The notes beneath the pieces are model-generated. The model did no database searches. It saw only the letters and a list, made by a program, of their open reading frames with translations, and had not been told where the DNA came from. 64,000 nt of DNA, from contig JBCCJI010000014.1 in assembly GCA_039027855.1 (NCBI GenBank), positions 33,492-97,491 of the forward strand, given 5' to 3'. Positions 25,037 through 31,468 of the stretch are shown piece by piece. How positions within the stretch are numbered: the stretch's first letter is position 1; each line of letters starts with the position of its first letter. The translations under genes were made by a program, and so were the position numbers. This stretch comes from Pseudomonadota bacterium (lineage in GTDB: Bacteria; Pseudomonadota; Alphaproteobacteria; Rhodobacterales; Rhodobacteraceae).

Positions 25037-26095
25037 TCAGCGGTCGTTGCGGACGGGGATGGCAGCGGCGCCGAGCAGCGTGGCGACGGCATCGTGGATC
25101 ACGTTGCCGAGCGTCTCGAACCGCTGAGCGAGCGGCGAGGTGGCGCGCCAGACGAGGCCGAGTGTCCGCGACGGACCGGCGGGCCCGAAAGAGAGGCATT
25201 CCAGGGTCTCGGCGCGCACCTCGATCCGTGCCGCCATGGCAGGGATCAGGGTGACGCCCATCCCGGCCTCGGCCATCTGCGCCAATGTGGACAAAGAACT
25301 TACACTGAGCGTCTCGCCCATGCCTGGGCCCGCATCCAACCCCGTATCTCGCGCTGTCATCGAGGCGGTGGCGTCGGCCGTCACGCCCGTCCGACTGAGG
25401 CCAGCAGGGCCTAGGGCACCGGTGCCGCCCGTGCAGAACGAGAGGGCCTGATCGCGAAAGCAATGCCCCTCTTCGAGCAGGAGCAGACGCTCATCGAGCA
25501 ACATGCCGAGATTGGCTTCCGCCATCTCGCCGTCTTCCGGCACCGGCGCGCTGTCCTCGGGCCGTCGGCGGAGCATCAGGAAGGGCTCGGCGATGAGCGG
25601 CAGCGTGACGAGGCCCGGTCGCTCAGCGGGCAAGGCGAGCAGCGCAAGATCGAGCTTCGCCGCCGCGATATCGTCGAGCAGCCGCTCGGTCTGGCTTTCG
25701 CGCACCACGAGGTCGAGATCCGGCGCAGACTGGGAAAGGCGACCGAGCAGCGTCGGCAGCAGATAGGGCGCCACCGTCGGAATGATCCCGAGTGTCAGCC
25801 GGCCGGTAAGCGCGGCCGGTTCCCCCTGGCCATGGACCTGCCCGATATCGGCAAGCTCGGCGACACCCTGCAGGATCGCGCTGGCCCGGCGCGCCACCTC
25901 GTGGCCGGCCGCTGTGATCTCCACCCGGCGGGCGCGACGCTCGACAAGCGGCACGCCGATGGTGGTCTCGAGTTCACGGATCTGCATGGACAGCGCCGGC
26001 TGGCTGATGGCGACCGCCCGTGCGGCATCGCCAAAATGCCGGTGGCGCACCAGCGCATCGAAGTAGCGCAGCTGTCGGAGCGTGATCGGTATCAT
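25037..26095 (-). CDS. oxyR: Hydrogen peroxide-inducible LysR regulator OxyR
   Basis: LysR HTH (TLRQLRYF...SQPALSMQIRELE); LLLLEEGHCFRDQALSFC with both redox Cys; divergent from katG. Confidence 0.92.
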   Translation of the reverse strand: MIPITLRQLRYFDALVRHRHFGDAARAVAISQPALSMQIRELETTIGVPLVERRARRVEITAAGHEVARRASAILQGVAELADIGQVHGQGEPAALTGRLTLGIIPTVAPYLLPTLLGRLSQSAPDLDLVVRESQTERLLDDIAAAKLDLALLALPAERPGLVTLPLIAEPFLMLRRRPEDSAPVPEDGEMAEANLGMLLDERLLLLEEGHCFRDQALSFCTGGTGALGPAGLSRTGVTADATASMTARDTGLDAGPGMGETLSVSSLSTLAQMAEAGMGVTLIPAMAARIEVRAETLECLSFGPAGPSRTLGLVWRATSPLAQRFETLGNVIHDAVATLLGAAAIPVRNDR

Positions 26096-26192: not shown

Positions 26193-28409
<2,217 letters not shown>

Positions 28410-28438
28410 CGCCGCTCCATCAGTGATCGGATGTGAGG

Positions 28439-28471
28439 GCCCGCCGCAGAGATGCGGCGGGCTTTGTCGTT
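28439..28471 (+). terminator. Rho-independent terminator of katG
   Basis: gcccgccgca-GAGA-tgcggcgggc followed by tttgtcgtt. Confidence 0.8.
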
Positions 28472-28716
28472 TGGTGCTTGGCAGCACCCAGCGGCTTCAC
28501 GCCGTCTTGCGCCACGGTAAGACGGCGACCGTCTCAGGGGCGCGCATGCCCTGCGCCAGCGCAGCGGCGACGCAGCGGCTTCGCTGTCGGGACATGTCAT
28601 GACAGGCGCGTCCGGACACGAAAACAACCCGTCTGGGCGCGAAATGACCTGCCGTGGGACGCCGATTGCGCCCAGAGGTCGTGGAGCCGACCACCGCAAC
28701 CTGCTAGGCTCGTCGC

Positions 28717-29535
28717 ATGTCGAAAAAGACCGAAAGCATCGAGATCCGTGTCTCACCCGAACTGAAGGCGGCGCTTGCTGCGCGGGCCGAGGACGAGGGT
28801 CGTTCCATGAGCGATCTTGTCCGCGACCTGATCGAAAGCGAGCGCTCTGGCTCTGGTTCTGGCGCTGGCGCGGGCACCCGGCAGGGCGACGGTGGCGGCC
28901 TTCCCGCAACCGATCCCGGAGACGACGAGATGATCCTGCCCTCCCGCCGTGGCGCGCTGCGTGCCGCCCTGCTCTCGCTACCCGTCGCAGCGCTTGGCGT
29001 GGTCTATGCGCTAAGCGCGCAGACACCGGCCACAGCCTCTTCGGAGTTTCGCGTGATGTTCGCCGAGCTCGACGCCAATGGCGACGGCCGCGTCGAAGCG
29101 CCCGAGTTTGCCAGTTTCCTCGTTCGCGAGGAGGAGTTCGAGCCCGAGGCCGACTGTGCCGACAAAGGCGAACCCTGCACGGCGCTGGAGCGCGCCACCA
29201 ACGAGATCGACAGACACGACAGCGACGCCAATGGCGTGATCACCTATGACGAGCTCGAGGCGTTCCTGATCCGCGAACGGGCCGAAGTGTTCATCGAGCA
29301 CGACGTGAACGCCAACGGGTTCGTCACGGCCGATGAGTTCGCGCTGGTCCAGGCCTTCCACGCGATGGAGGATGGCGAGGCGATCCCCGCCGCCTGCCGT
29401 ACCCTGATCGAGGAAGAAACGCCCGAAGGCGCCGCCGAGGCCTGCGATGCCGGAGAGCATCTGCGCATCGAGATGGCCGAGTTCGACGCCAACCGCGACG
29501 GGCGCGTCGCCTTGCTGGAGTATCTCGCCCACTGA
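28717..29535 (+). CDS. Ribbon-helix-helix / hydrophobic helix / four EF-hand protein
   Basis: N-terminal SIEIRVSPELKAALAARAEDEGRSMSDLVRDLIE (RHH pattern); EF loops DANGDGRVEAPE, DSDANGVITYDE, DVNANGFVTADE, DANRDGRVALLE. Confidence 0.8.
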   Translation: MSKKTESIEIRVSPELKAALAARAEDEGRSMSDLVRDLIESERSGSGSGAGAGTRQGDGGGLPATDPGDDEMILPSRRGALRAALLSLPVAALGVVYALSAQTPATASSEFRVMFAELDANGDGRVEAPEFASFLVREEEFEPEADCADKGEPCTALERATNEIDRHDSDANGVITYDELEAFLIRERAEVFIEHDVNANGFVTADEFALVQAFHAMEDGEAIPAACRTLIEEETPEGAAEACDAGEHLRIEMAEFDANRDGRVALLEYLAH

Positions 29536-29618
29536 GAGCCGGGGCCCCGGGTGGACCGGCGCCCTTCGGACTATCTGCGCCCAAGACCGGCTACCAAGCA
29601 CCGGCGATCAAGAACCGG

Positions 29619-29867
29619 CTACACCGTGACGGGGCGCCTTAAGGCCGCTGGCGGCGCAAGCTCCGCGCCGCCAAACAGGGTCAGCGCCTGGATGCCCGGC
29701 GTGATCCCGTCGGTCCGCCCGATCACCGTCGCGCGCCCAAGCGCCTGGCCCTGGTCATCGATCATCAGCGCCGCATCCCCGGCGCCATAGGGCGCGTTGG
29801 GATCGGTCTCGACCACCAGCGTGACAACCCAACCATCCTCCGCCGGTGGCGGCACGAATTGTGACAT
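29619..29867 (-). CDS. Small hypothetical protein (82 aa)
   Basis: SD GAGGGA upstream of ATG 29867; globular-looking sequence; no family recognised. Confidence 0.55.
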   Translation of the reverse strand: MSQFVPPPAEDGWVVTLVVETDPNAPYGAGDAALMIDDQGQALGRATVIGRTDGITPGIQALTLFGGAELAPPAALRRPVTV

Positions 29868-30041
29868 CCCCATTCCCTCGCTCCCCCAAGCGATGCGCCT
29901 GCCGCGCAGACTGCGACAAGCCCGTTGACGTTCGATTGAAGTCGCGGCGAGGCGGGGCACAGATGCTGCGACCGATGCGCCGCGGTGGGTTGCAGATCTC
30001 GCCTAACGGTGGCCTGCGACCGTCTGGACGGGTCGGCAGAA

Positions 30042-30106: not shown

Positions 30107-30766
30107 ATGGTTGCCAGCATGCCGCTGCGTGAGATCATGCGTGACAGGATCGTCGGGGTCGGCATGGCCAAGGCCCCGGATGGCCTGCAAAAGATCCGTC
30201 ATCGCGGCTGTTCGGCGGTGATCTGGAACCGAACGCCGCCGCCTGGTTTTGTTCGGTGGATCGACTGTCTCGACCCCGCGCGCCTCCCGCGCGCCCGCGT
30301 GGTGGTGCCTCTGGACGAGGTGGCCGCAACCGTCGCGGCGCTTTGTACCGAGAGCGCGATGCCCCCCGGAGAGCATTGCGACTGGTTCATCGACGACGTG
30401 GCACGGCTTGCCCTACTGTTCGCCGCGCAGATGTCAGCGGCCGGGATCGACACCCCGTTCCTGCGCCTGCGCCTCGATGCGGTGACGACCGATTCCTGCC
30501 GGCGTTTCCATGTCGATGCGGTGAAAGCGCGGCTGGTCTGCACCTACCGCGGCCCGGGTACGCAATACGGCACGGCGCGCGGAGGCGATGCGCCTGCGAC
30601 CGTTTTCGATGTTCCCCCCTGCGCGCCGATCCTGCTGCGCGGGACGCTTTGGCCGGCCAACCCGCCCACAGGCCTCGTCCATCGCTCACCGCCCATTGCC
30701 GGTACGGGGAGGACGCGCCTGGTGCTTGTACTCGATCCGATGAGCGCGCCTGTGGACGCCTTCTGA
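30107..30766 (+). CDS. DUF1826 domain protein
   Basis: LRLRLDAVTTDSCRRFHVD, RLVCTYRGPGTQY, GLVHRSPPI, RLVLVLD (HxD...H). Confidence 0.8.
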   Translation: MVASMPLREIMRDRIVGVGMAKAPDGLQKIRHRGCSAVIWNRTPPPGFVRWIDCLDPARLPRARVVVPLDEVAATVAALCTESAMPPGEHCDWFIDDVARLALLFAAQMSAAGIDTPFLRLRLDAVTTDSCRRFHVDAVKARLVCTYRGPGTQYGTARGGDAPATVFDVPPCAPILLRGTLWPANPPTGLVHRSPPIAGTGRTRLVLVLDPMSAPVDAF

Positions 30767-31126: not shown

Positions 31127-31468
31127 CTATGCGCTCTCCCCTGAGGCATCATCGCTTTCGTCCTGACGGGTGTCGGCGAGAGCCCGGCTCTCTTTCTTGA
31201 GCCGCCGGCTCGGTGGGCAAACCTCGCCCAAGAAATCGGTCAGCGTCACGGTCAGTGTCTCGCGCTGCAGGCCATACCGGATGTGGTTCCCCTCGCGCCG
31301 GCGCCAGACCAGACCCGCGGCCTCCAGCACCGAGAGATGCTTTGAGATGGTCGGCTGCGCCATGTCAAAGCGCGCCGCGATCTCGCCCGCGGTCAGGTCG
31401 ACCTCGGAGAGATAGGCGAGGATGCGCCGGCGCGGCGTCGAGGAGAGCGCCTCGAAGATGCGTTCCAT
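31127..31468 (-). CDS. ArsR/SmtB-family regulator (SdpR-like)
   Basis: IFEALSSTPRRRIL, TAGEIAARFDMAQPTISKHLSVLEAAGLV. Confidence 0.88.
   Translation of the reverse strand: MERIFEALSSTPRRRILAYLSEVDLTAGEIAARFDMAQPTISKHLSVLEAAGLVWRRREGNHIRYGLQRETLTVTLTDFLGEVCPPSRRLKKESRALADTRQDESDDASGESA

Follow-up and report, generated by a model that had tools for sequence, protein, structure and literature searches.

The window analysed here is a 64-kb stretch of DNA (64,000 nucleotides), and positions 28717..29535 of its forward strand form one open reading frame encoding a protein of 272 amino acids. All of the elements named in the original prediction are present in this frame where they had been placed. 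The protein consists of an N-terminal ribbon-helix-helix (RHH) domain (28717..28851), a disordered Gly/Ser-rich tether (28852..28929), a Sec-type signal peptide or signal-anchor (28930..29037), and a mature, calmodulin-like domain of 165 residues with four EF-hands that is predicted to be periplasmic (29038..29532), all encoded on the forward strand. An AlphaFold2 model of the 272-residue protein has a mean pLDDT of 86. Profile matches, structure prediction, and conservation support a layout in which a cytoplasmic RHH domain is joined through one membrane-crossing segment to periplasmic EF-hands, and an N-in, single-pass topology is predicted from the Lys and Arg residues before the membrane helix and the acidic domain with conserved cysteines after it. 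This architecture appears to be undescribed: our literature search found no paper joining RHH, EF-hand, and transmembrane, in line with the earlier remark that no characterised protein is built this way.

The domains of the full-length protein

The assignment of the N-terminus as an RHH domain is well borne out. Pfam RHH_1 matches residues 8-40 with 25.0 bits (cut-off 20.5), weaker matches come from NikA-like, FitA, and HicB profiles, and these RHH profiles are the only DNA-binding profiles that the 272-residue protein matches. The AlphaFold2 monomer shows an extended segment (residues 1-13) followed by two helices (residues 14-27 and 31-45), with pLDDT values of 88-95; in RHH proteins the strand pairs only in the dimer. 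Relatives keep the domain. The strand sequence MSKKTE.IE.R.SPE.K is invariant across the family, and Ser2 is encoded by unlike codons at different loci (TCG/TCC or AGC), indicating selection at the protein level. Distant members pass the RHH_1 cut-off or nearly do so, and the strand-helix-helix fold is also found in the AlphaFold2 model of one of them.

The Gly/Ser linker (residues 46-71), also noted originally, has pLDDT values below 50 and is predicted to be disordered. Among relatives it varies in both length and sequence, except at its 3' end, and its indels preserve the reading frame. The segment that follows is organized like a Sec signal peptide, with Lys/Arg in the n-region, a hydrophobic h-region, and small residues at positions -3 and -1. 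It reads MILPSRRGALR (n-region), AALLSLPVAALGVVYAL (h-region), and SAQTPATA (c-region), followed by S108, so that both the hydrophobic core and the AxA motif of the original prediction are in place. No variation is seen at position -1 (A107), and every protein has Ala or Val at position -3 (22 of 22), giving a predicted signal peptidase I site at A107|S108 (nt 29037|29038). Across a wider set of 141 family proteins, Lys or Arg stands ahead of the h-region in every case and [AV]xA is present in 113, and distant members have textbook c-regions. The h-region contains a conserved LP..Y motif, with P89 and Y97 conserved within a helix that AlphaFold2 extends over 24 residues (77-100). In the same 141 proteins the uncharged stretch has a median length of 27 residues and the h-region spans about 17-20, a length between that of a stable anchor and that of a cleaved signal peptide, whose h-region we take as about 7-15 residues. 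With so long an uncharged stretch, cleavage could be absent or conditional. The conserved (A/V)-x-A points to signal-peptidase cleavage in preference to allosteric transmembrane signaling.

The description of this segment as Tat-like did not survive comparison with relatives. A Tat signal is marked by a conserved S/T-R-R-x-F-L-K ahead of a weakly hydrophobic h-region, whereas here the twin arginine of the window protein is not conserved, relatives carry RS, TR, PR, and similar pairs at the SRRGALR site, and the h-region is strongly hydrophobic. No Tat-signal model was matched in an NCBIfam search. Sec export would also suit a periplasmic Ca2+-binding domain with disulfide bonds.

The mature domain contains the four EF-hand loops and four cysteines that had been recognized in the letters. 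Using the pattern D-x-[DNS]-x-[DNSG]-G-x-[ILV]-x3-[ED], occurring in pairs, we located canonical 12-residue loops at residues 119-130, 168-179, 196-207, and 257-268 (nt 29071-29106, 29218-29253, 29302-29337, and 29485-29520, forward strand); the cysteines are Cys147, Cys154, Cys227, and Cys243 (codons at nt 29155, 29176, 29395, and 29443, forward strand). Pfam EF-hand_1, EF-hand_5, and EF-hand_7 each match four stretches and EF-hand_6 matches three (E 1e-13 to 1e-17), Foldseek matches calmodulins with a probability of 1.00, and most of the domain is modeled at pLDDT above 90. The canonical chemistry of the loops predicts Ca2+ binding. The domain is acidic, with 43 Asp/Glu versus 12 Lys/Arg in its 165 residues, and two to four ectodomain cysteines are conserved among relatives, C147 and C227 being invariant in the mature-domain alignment. 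Assignment to lanmodulin (LanM; NCBIfam 18.3 bits, cut-off 135) or to the XopAW EF-hand family (NCBIfam 35.8 bits, cut-off 120) was rejected. Neither single-sequence nor profile searches found a close homologue of the EF-hand domain that lacks the RHH; among the EF-hand proteins next in similarity, nearly all start with a plain signal peptide.

An internal start and upstream boxes

At the junction of tether and signal peptide lies an internal in-frame ATG, M72 (28930..28932, forward strand), preceded by the Shine-Dalgarno sequence GGAG (28918..28921) with an 8-nt spacer. The original prediction had pointed out this methionine with its own ribosome-binding site, and we find that the pair is conserved at the nucleotide level. 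Among 22 family loci, which are related phylogenetically and hence not independent, 14 have GGAG beginning precisely at -12, compared with 0.6% of background internal ATGs, and 17 have it within -15..-8, compared with 2.3%. The motif is made up of the rare glycine codon GGA and the G that follows; GGA is always used at this place, while its share of glycine codons in family loci is 2-18%, mostly 3-8%. In L011, L002, L004, and L021, GGAG is kept despite differing amino acids. M72 itself is at least 90% conserved as Met in the close family, and 116 of 141 wider-family proteins have a Met close to where the hydrophobic segment begins. Because the position of GGAG is conserved, the rare GGA codon is used, and the motif outlasts amino-acid changes, a second product is likely, namely an ordinary secretory precursor of 201 residues. 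It would not be universal, as 4 of the 22 loci lack a Met ahead of the h-region. One of the two readings offered originally, a single gene making both an anchored regulator and an exported EF-hand protein, gains strong comparative support from the nucleotide-level conservation of the internal Shine-Dalgarno sequence and ATG.

Upstream of the gene we found a series of operator-like boxes on the forward strand. Two abutting, perfect 10-bp palindromes of the TGTC-N2-GACA type, TGTCGGGACA and TGTCATGACA, occupy 28585..28604; they are the only matches to TGTCNNGACA in the 64-kb window and give a PWM match at -132 of 10.1 bits. The main box, box 1 (cGTCCGGACACGAAA; 28609..28623), scores 24.2 bits with the PWM, and box 2 (cGTCTGGGCGCGAAA; 28630..28644) is a degenerate direct repeat 21 bp downstream of it. 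At L144, TGTCATGACACGAAA serves as the main box. All 24 loci have boxes of the form TGTCCGGACACGAAA at a distance of 70-190 nt ahead of the gene, with five of 15 positions invariant among their box-1 equivalents. Such boxes are found almost nowhere else: the PWM background is 0.02 matches per kb, the window has the exact box-1 10-mer only once, and the 17 fetched loci containing this 10-mer have it nowhere but upstream of the gene. Among loci, a second box recurs 21-22 bp past box 1, with a non-palindromic CGAAA tail common to both. The box includes a 10-bp palindrome, and the tandem copies stand about two helical turns apart. Searches with the 10-mer and the PWM found no second target site in the 64-kb window or in ~250 kb of flanks.

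The RHH strand KKTE.IE.R is conserved together with these boxes, which implies autoregulation, and the gene probably controls its own promoter. From the conserved, gene-specific tandem boxes we infer that the RHH domain dimerizes and binds DNA sequence-specifically, with the upstream boxes as its putative target. Scanning the upstream region for sigma-70 promoters gave no match, and the boxes may sit upstream of, over, or downstream of the promoter. We rejected the alternative that the boxes belong to a structured RNA leader and not to a DNA operator, since the predicted fold is not significant (z-score -1.2), no relevant Rfam family is matched, and the repeats are in direct orientation with a non-palindromic tail; the only Rfam match upstream is a weak fragment of the CC2171 sRNA, far below its cut-off. 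A metagenome-wide scan with a 14-mer of the box returned at least 119 loci, nearly all of them chance matches, and uncovered the divergent member L131, while a literature search for the box sequence returned unrelated contexts only (p53 sites, primers). A search for RNA runs from the organism of the window returned none. The orthologue at L015 is covered by contig-level metatranscriptomes; a gene in the same direction runs to within 30 nt of the boxes there, so these contigs cannot fix the start site of the orthologue.

Distribution and passenger domains

The fusion is no product of chance: it is found at full length in about 20 close relatives with 33-67% identity, in frame despite linker indels, and one frame is kept in 22 proteins from a word search and in 17 genome loci. 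A profile search, a type of check that had been suggested for the architecture, returned 83 cluster representatives at E<=1e-10, and among marine Alphaproteobacteria at least 80 clusters contain the fusion. Members of the family are frequent in marine Rhodobacterales and Rhizobiales, groups in which to our knowledge Ca2+ signaling is almost unexplored; cultured carriers include Thalassovita mediterranea, Aliiroseovarius crassostreae, Gymnodinialimonas hymeniacidonis, Hoeflea, and Nitratireductor.

Exported domains that are unrelated to each other, EF-hands and a beta-sandwich, stand behind the same combination of promoter box, RHH, and signal peptide, and distant members with other passengers keep both the box and the strand KK[TS]E.[IL]E[VI]R. 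In relatives of ~200 residues the passenger is beta-rich and yields a confident all-beta model, for which Foldseek found no match at E<=0.001 and only weak resemblance to LolA and C2. We found no conserved operon, partner gene, or neighborhood, every locus having different neighbors; given this lack of conserved gene neighborhood, the gene is, by sequence comparison, a standalone unit.

Candidate mechanisms and known systems

Our best model, to which we assign a probability of roughly 0.45, is that of an autoregulated, Sec-exported EF-hand protein with a membrane-tethered RHH that would be freed by signal peptidase and then by an intramembrane protease. The locus would be a self-contained, autoregulated unit, probably encoding two in-frame proteins. 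The long product (272 residues) would insert into the inner membrane via Sec with its N-terminus in the cytoplasm, the disordered linker tethering the cytoplasmic RHH to the signal-peptide-like segment and the disulfide-bonded, acidic domain with its four EF-hands lying in the periplasm. The short product (201 residues), initiated at the internal GGAG-N8-ATG, would be a secretory precursor of the ordinary type for this EF-hand protein. RHH dimers on the tandem TGTCCGGACAcgaaa boxes would set transcription of their own gene. In this model, the coupling between periplasm and DNA would be proteolytic, neither Tat-dependent nor allosteric: signal peptidase I would cut at (A/V)-x-A between A107 and S108 and free the EF-hand protein, and a site-2 protease of the RseP type or a signal-peptide peptidase would then remove or release the stub of RHH, linker, and signal peptide. 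Site-2 proteases are also described as processing signal peptides (PMC10202637). As the first EF-hand helix starts two residues past the predicted site, Ca2+-dependent folding may gate the cut, much as lysozyme binding gates cleavage of RsiV.

RsiV is the anti-sigma-V factor of Bacillus subtilis and Clostridioides difficile, for which signal peptidase acts as the site-1 protease. It comprises a cytoplasmic N-terminal regulatory domain, one membrane segment, an A-X-A/V-X-A signal-peptidase site, and a ligand-binding ectodomain, and cleavage is followed by a site-2 protease (PMC9044953). Our protein is organized likewise, its conserved (A/V)-x-A standing where membrane segment and ectodomain meet. 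In contrast to RsiV, it has a DNA-binding RHH as its cytoplasmic part where RsiV has an anti-sigma domain, its ectodomain carries four EF-hands and is not a lysozyme receptor, an internal start would give a plain secretory form, the two proteins show no sequence homology, and cleavage here is predicted from the motif. No anti-sigma profile was found in the protein, and no sigma factor gene near the locus. By analogy, the locus may work like RsiV, yet it stands outside the RsiV family.

ToxR, CadC, TcpP, and VtrA are built similarly, each with an N-terminal domain that binds DNA in the cytoplasm, one transmembrane segment, and a disulfide-bearing periplasmic sensor. It is conceivable, if somewhat unlikely, that our protein is an uncleaved one-component sensor of this type, with a permanent signal-anchor, in which Ca2+ on the EF-hands would alter the oligomeric state and so the RHH occupancy of the tandem boxes at its own promoter, and perhaps of others elsewhere in the genome. 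The long hydrophobic and uncharged stretch, the 24-residue helix of the AlphaFold2 model, and the conserved P89 and Y97 within it would all suit such a sensor, but an invariant -1 Ala, an (A/V)-x-A motif, and textbook c-regions would have no purpose in a permanent anchor. RHH proteins bind tandem sites as dimers or tetramers, as the boxes would require; still, with no second site in the window or the ~250 kb of flanks, a sensor acting only on itself would have no output, and the conserved internal Shine-Dalgarno sequence and ATG, which would give an RHH-less secretory precursor, would go unexplained. The occurrence of one DNA-binding head on varied ectodomains has a parallel among ToxR-like receptors, although an identical operator and reading head across different "sensor" domains would be unusual for distinct outputs. 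The known proteins differ further in having an OmpR-type winged helix in place of an RHH, in lacking a conserved signal-peptidase motif and an internal start, and in regulating other operons, whereas here only the gene's own promoter has a site within the window and flanks examined. Some ToxR-type factors are removed by RseP, according to the report cited above (PMC10202637). Feedback might instead operate without intramembrane release: the RHH would be active only in the cytoplasmic precursor, Sec targeting would sequester it, and transcription would drop when export backs up. We regard this scheme as unlikely, and equally its extension to a portable "secretion governor" for any passenger that follows. 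It would account for the same box, RHH, and signal peptide ahead of unrelated exported domains, and for a standalone unit with a disordered, variable tether, yet it would not need the conserved LP..Y of the h-region, and so hydrophobic an h-region would be expected to be targeted co-translationally, leaving little precursor in the cytoplasm. Sequence alone hardly separates it from the best model.

That the RHH does not read the boxes at all seems to us decidedly improbable. The boxes would then be another factor's site or a promoter element, and the N-terminus would have a non-DNA role (protein-protein contact, an antitoxin-like function, or export targeting). Consistent with this are the modest 25-bit score, the identity of the nearest solved RHH (the antitoxin MazE7, at weak similarity, E 0.04), the two invariant glutamates of the strand, E6 and E9, a feature unusual in a DNA-reading strand, and the unmatched sigma-70 scan. 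Yet at least four lineages, whose passengers differ, conserve box and strand together, and they do so at this gene alone; palindrome-type copies in tandem about two helical turns apart are the typical layout of an RHH operator; and no conserved toxin partner was found in the neighborhoods examined. It is extremely unlikely that the fusion is an annotation artefact in which an adjacent RHH gene and secreted EF-hand gene merely seem joined in the assembly. An internal ATG with its own Shine-Dalgarno sequence and a downstream part forming a complete secretory precursor are what such an artefact would produce, but no stop codon separates the two parts in ~40 independent isolate, MAG, and metagenome sequences of varying linker length, and interruptions are limited to L022 and L023, which look like frameshifts.

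Returning to the model of a tethered, proteolytically freed RHH, its separate parts have precedents. CopG, Arc, Mnt, omega, MetJ, and type II antitoxins, in which a small strand-helix-helix domain forms the N-terminus, bind at their own promoters to sites that are tandem or palindromic; our protein resembles them in passing the RHH_1 cut-off and in its tandem, palindrome-containing boxes. The known autoregulatory RHH repressors are soluble, and we know of none that continues into a signal peptide and exported domain. Regulated intramembrane proteolysis and transcription factors tethered to membranes are likewise well known. What appears not to have been described is an RHH ahead of a cleavable-looking signal peptide, nor the reuse of the same box, RHH, and signal peptide on unrelated exported domains. 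For the predicted short product, the precedents are Caulobacter CaBP and Pseudomonas aeruginosa EfhP, Sec-dependent, Ca2+-binding EF-hand proteins outside the cytoplasm (PMC13171946; see also PMC9132961 and PMC4053335). The short product would be of the same kind, whereas CaBP and EfhP have no fused DNA-binding domain and have three and two EF-hands, respectively, versus four here, and our protein contains inserts with conserved cysteines.

If the best model is true, the family would represent a new bacterial coupling of gene expression to protein export or periplasmic Ca2+, and a clean, conserved case of two proteins made from one bacterial reading frame by internal initiation; its compact combination of operator, repressor, and signal peptide might find use in synthetic biology. 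A broader reading, which we offer tentatively and consider doubtful, is that boxes, RHH, tether, internal ribosome-binding site, and signal peptide form a portable control cassette for exported proteins, in which export flux would meter transcription. One mRNA would give the RHH-less precursor and, less often, a precursor with the transcription factor as an enlarged n-region, and signal peptidase followed by a site-2 protease would release the factor only after successful export. In members with EF-hands, Ca2+-dependent folding beside the cleavage site would perhaps be metered as well. If true, this would be the first signal peptide to deliver a transcription factor. In a preprint on the MntS signal peptide, RHH is mentioned solely for NikR. 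For enterococcal pheromones, PMC10202637 (citing Saito et al, 2011) describes how a signal peptide already cut by signal peptidase is processed by Eep/RseP to give a bioactive fragment. Those short fragments act outside the cell or are degraded, whereas here the n-region would carry a folded transcription factor domain of ~70 residues.

Architecture and conservation of the fusion

The open reading frame at 28717-29535 (plus strand) encodes 272 amino acids, in which Pfam places RHH_1 at residues 8-40 (25.0 bits against a curated cut-off of 20.5), with weaker matches to NikA-like, FitA-like, HicB and further RHH families. EF-hand_1, EF-hand_5 and EF-hand_7 match four stretches each and EF-hand_6 three (E 1e-13 to 1e-17); the NCBIfam matches, to XopAW, YlcI and lanmodulin, all fell below threshold. 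For the C-terminal 165 residues, a PDB sequence search and Foldseek alike point to calmodulins and their four-EF-hand relatives. The AlphaFold2 model (mean pLDDT 86) comprises an extended N-terminus, two helices (14-27 and 31-45) that match the RHH fold expected of a monomer, a disordered linker (46-72), a single long helix (77-100) and a confident EF-hand domain (109-271). Each of the four EF loops (DANGDGRVEAPE, DSDANGVITYDE, DVNANGFVTADE and DANRDGRVALLE) is fully canonical, and cysteines lie at 147, 154, 227 and 243. The original prediction of an RHH N-terminus, four EF-hand loops and four cysteines therefore holds, as does its internal methionine at nucleotide 28930, which is M72 and is preceded by GGAG at 28918-28921.

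A search of 5.8 billion proteins returned 22 relatives, almost all of 256-292 amino acids and aligned over their full length at 33-67% identity. The original prediction had counted loss of the RHH domain from orthologues against itself; the aligned proteins all share an N-terminal MSKKTE.IE.R.SPE.K without variation. The Ser2 codon is TCG or TCC at some loci and AGC at others, which shows selection on the N-terminus as protein. Linker length and sequence differ between relatives, always with the reading frame kept. Scanning one genome per species gave 17 loci with the gene, in Rhodobacterales (Roseicyclus, Thalassovita, Aliiroseovarius, Cochlodiniinecator and Oceanibium), in Pelagibius, and in Hoeflea, Nitratireductor and a Rhizobiaceae MAG. 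By this comparison the RHH/transmembrane/EF-hand fusion is conserved and no accident, and the comparative data exclude an annotation artefact in which two genes appear fused. Two loci, in a Roseicyclus MAG (L022:6001-6287) and a Rhizobiaceae long-read MAG (L023:6001-6370), keep the upstream boxes and an intact RHH domain, with the frame breaking just past the internal methionine or the start of the transmembrane segment; these breaks are either assembly indels or pseudogenes.

Export signal, internal start and upstream boxes

The hydrophobic segment had been read as a Tat-like twin-arginine helix. The window protein does carry a Tat-like S-R-R-G-A-L-R, but most relatives lack the twin arginine, and a Tat signal is not supported. 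Relatives keep LP..Y within the segment and close it with S-A-Q-x-P-(A/V)-x-A, whose alanine at -1 never varies. Across 141 family proteins, K/R stands directly ahead of the hydrophobic stretch in every one, a methionine precedes it in 116 and [AV]-x-A closes it in 113; distant members have textbook-type c-regions (SSA|QD, ASA|QD, AQA|EV and SLA|DD). We conclude from these motifs that the segment is probably a signal peptide or signal-anchor of the Sec type. The uncharged stretch is long (median 27 residues, with an h-region of about 17-20), and so is intermediate between those of cleaved signal peptides and of stable anchors. An acidic mature domain with conserved cysteines (C147 and C227 are invariant) fits a periplasmic location for the EF-hands, as does the plain signal peptide at the start of nearly all of the next-nearest generic EF-hand proteins.

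GGAG starts exactly 12 nucleotides 5' of the pre-h-region ATG at 14 of 22 loci and lies within -15 to -8 at 17, against 0.6% and 2.3%, respectively, of 1508 internal in-frame ATGs from background ORFs of the same loci, the loci being related rather than independent samples. The glycine codon at this site is always the rare GGA (2-18% of glycine codons in these loci, mostly 3-8%), and GGAG is kept where the encoded residues differ (Met-Glu in L011, Gly-Gly in L002 and L004, Gly-Val in L021), while the remainder of the linker is unconserved. This pattern reflects selection on the nucleotides; a second translation start, which would yield a 201-residue classical secretory precursor, accounts for it most simply. 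The earlier suggestion of a two-product gene is thus favored by nucleotide-level conservation of GGAG and ATG, but does not extend to four loci that lack the pre-h-region methionine. At the first start codon, the window (28690-28716) and loci L006 and L004 lack a good Shine-Dalgarno sequence, other loci having GGAGG there; these three share TGCTAG(G/T)CT 6-8 nucleotides upstream, a sequence similar to an extended -10 element, in which case the long-form mRNA of this subgroup would be leaderless.

All 24 loci carry TGTCCGGACACGAAA or a near variant 70-190 nucleotides ahead of the first start codon, with five of the 15 positions invariant. The box holds a perfect 10-bp palindrome and is usually flanked at 21-24 bp by weaker, directly oriented copies that have the same non-palindromic CGAAA tail. 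In the window, two abutting palindromes (28585-28604) precede box 1 (28609-28623) and box 2 (28630-28644). Within the 64-kb window the exact 10-mer GTCCGGACAC occurs once, and in the 17 fetched loci having it, it lies solely upstream of the gene; TGTCNNGACA is found nowhere else in the window, and weight-matrix matches elsewhere number 0.02 per kb. In the box region, neither an Rfam family nor a significant RNA fold was detected, and scanning the upstream sequence for a sigma-70 promoter gave no match. An invariant RHH strand with an invariant palindromic array nearby is the classic signature of RHH autoregulation, and we infer that this RHH domain binds the boxes and regulates its own gene.

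A portable N-terminal module and its possible mechanism

A profile of the RHH domain, linker and signal segment alone, searched against 1.84 billion representatives, matched 1079 proteins at E<=1e-3 and 83 at E<=1e-10. Most are RHH-transmembrane-EF-hand proteins with two to six hands, the architecture originally proposed. Many members of 180-250 amino acids join the KK[TS]E.[IL]E[VI]R strand and signal peptide to a different domain. This passenger is a confident all-beta fold (pLDDT above 90) with two conserved cysteines (C-x3-G-x2-C), predicted to be periplasmic and found in proteins of about 200 amino acids (P0089, encoded at L143:3001-3627, P0087, P0101 and others); it had no Pfam match and no Foldseek/PDB match at E<=0.001, with weak resemblance to LolA and C2. 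The same upstream box precedes four distant members (L131, L143, L144 and L145), and two of the four have GGAG(G) 6-8 nucleotides 5' of the internal ATG. Because box, RHH domain and signal peptide are shared ahead of varied domains, with no gene neighborhood conserved in any comparison of loci, the evolutionary unit is box, RHH, tether, (SD-ATG) and signal peptide, preceding varied exported domains. One distant member, P0116 (L144:3001-4305; 434 amino acids), has about six EF-hand loops, and its main box is a variant palindrome, TGTCATGACACGAAA, identical to the window's second palindrome (28595-28604).

Our overall model, to which we assign a probability of roughly 45%, is an autoregulated gene with long and short products and RsiV-like release. 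Sec would insert the long product N-in, and its RHH dimers would occupy the boxes and govern the unit's transcription, while most exported EF-hand protein would come from the short product. Signal peptidase I would cleave at A107|S108, after which a site-2 protease or signal-peptide peptidase would act on the remaining RHH-tether-signal-peptide stub, by analogy with the logic of RsiV, where signal peptidase is the site-1 protease (PMC9044953); signal peptides, too, are known substrates of site-2 proteases (PMC10202637). In the AlphaFold2 model the first EF-hand helix begins two residues past the predicted cut, so that Ca2+-driven folding could, speculatively, gate cleavage. Model, architecture readings and box function have a comparative or predicted basis throughout.

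An uncleaved ToxR-like Ca2+ sensor is the less probable account, leaving the conserved A-x-A and internal start unexplained. A repressor that monitors secretion, active solely before membrane targeting, seems unlikely, and we put still less weight on another factor reading the boxes. To return to the autoregulated two-product model, its most far-reaching form, in which a signal peptide would deliver a transcription factor as part of a portable export-metering cassette, is doubtful; if true, this would be categorically new. The locus is predicted to work like the membrane-tethered regulators RsiV and ToxR, but lacks an anti-sigma domain, a winged-helix domain and a partner sigma factor, and so belongs to neither family. 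The mature domain resembles the periplasmic EF-hand proteins EfhP and Caulobacter CaBP (PMC13171946 for the latter), but neither has a fused regulator. A literature search found no RHH, EF-hand and transmembrane combination and no such operator sequence in bacteria, and the RHH/signal-peptide family proteins all lack a name, in agreement with the original statement that no characterized protein is known to have this architecture.

Neighboring genes and transcripts

Immediately upstream lies a divergent pair that looks like an ordinary oxidative-stress pair, an OxyR-like LysR-family gene (25037-26095, minus) and katG (26235-28409, plus, catalase-peroxidase), which is not conserved alongside the orthologues. 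Just past katG, 28435-28464 weakly matches only the last 30 model positions of the Caulobacter sRNA CC2171 (RF01867) at 20.5 bits (E 0.034), far short of the gathering score of 75; the match probably reflects chance or a terminator-like fragment. Downstream are a 113-residue ORF without a Pfam match (29619-29960, minus), a DUF1826 gene (30107-30766, E 5e-53) and, on the opposite strand to it, an ArsR-family gene (31127-31468), as well as an epimerase gene. A terminator scan of the plus strand gave no T-rich intrinsic terminator; a 12-bp GC palindrome, CCGGGGCCCCGG, at 29539-29550, four nucleotides past the stop codon, might act as a weak terminator stem or as a site for a protein. In a Paracoccaceae MAG, a HigB-like toxin and HTH antitoxin pair (L002:7916-8491) directly follows the orthologue; it is missing at other loci and therefore probably unrelated to the gene. 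One orthologue's gene is present in RNA libraries, as contig-level metatranscriptomes that report presence only and no transcript starts.
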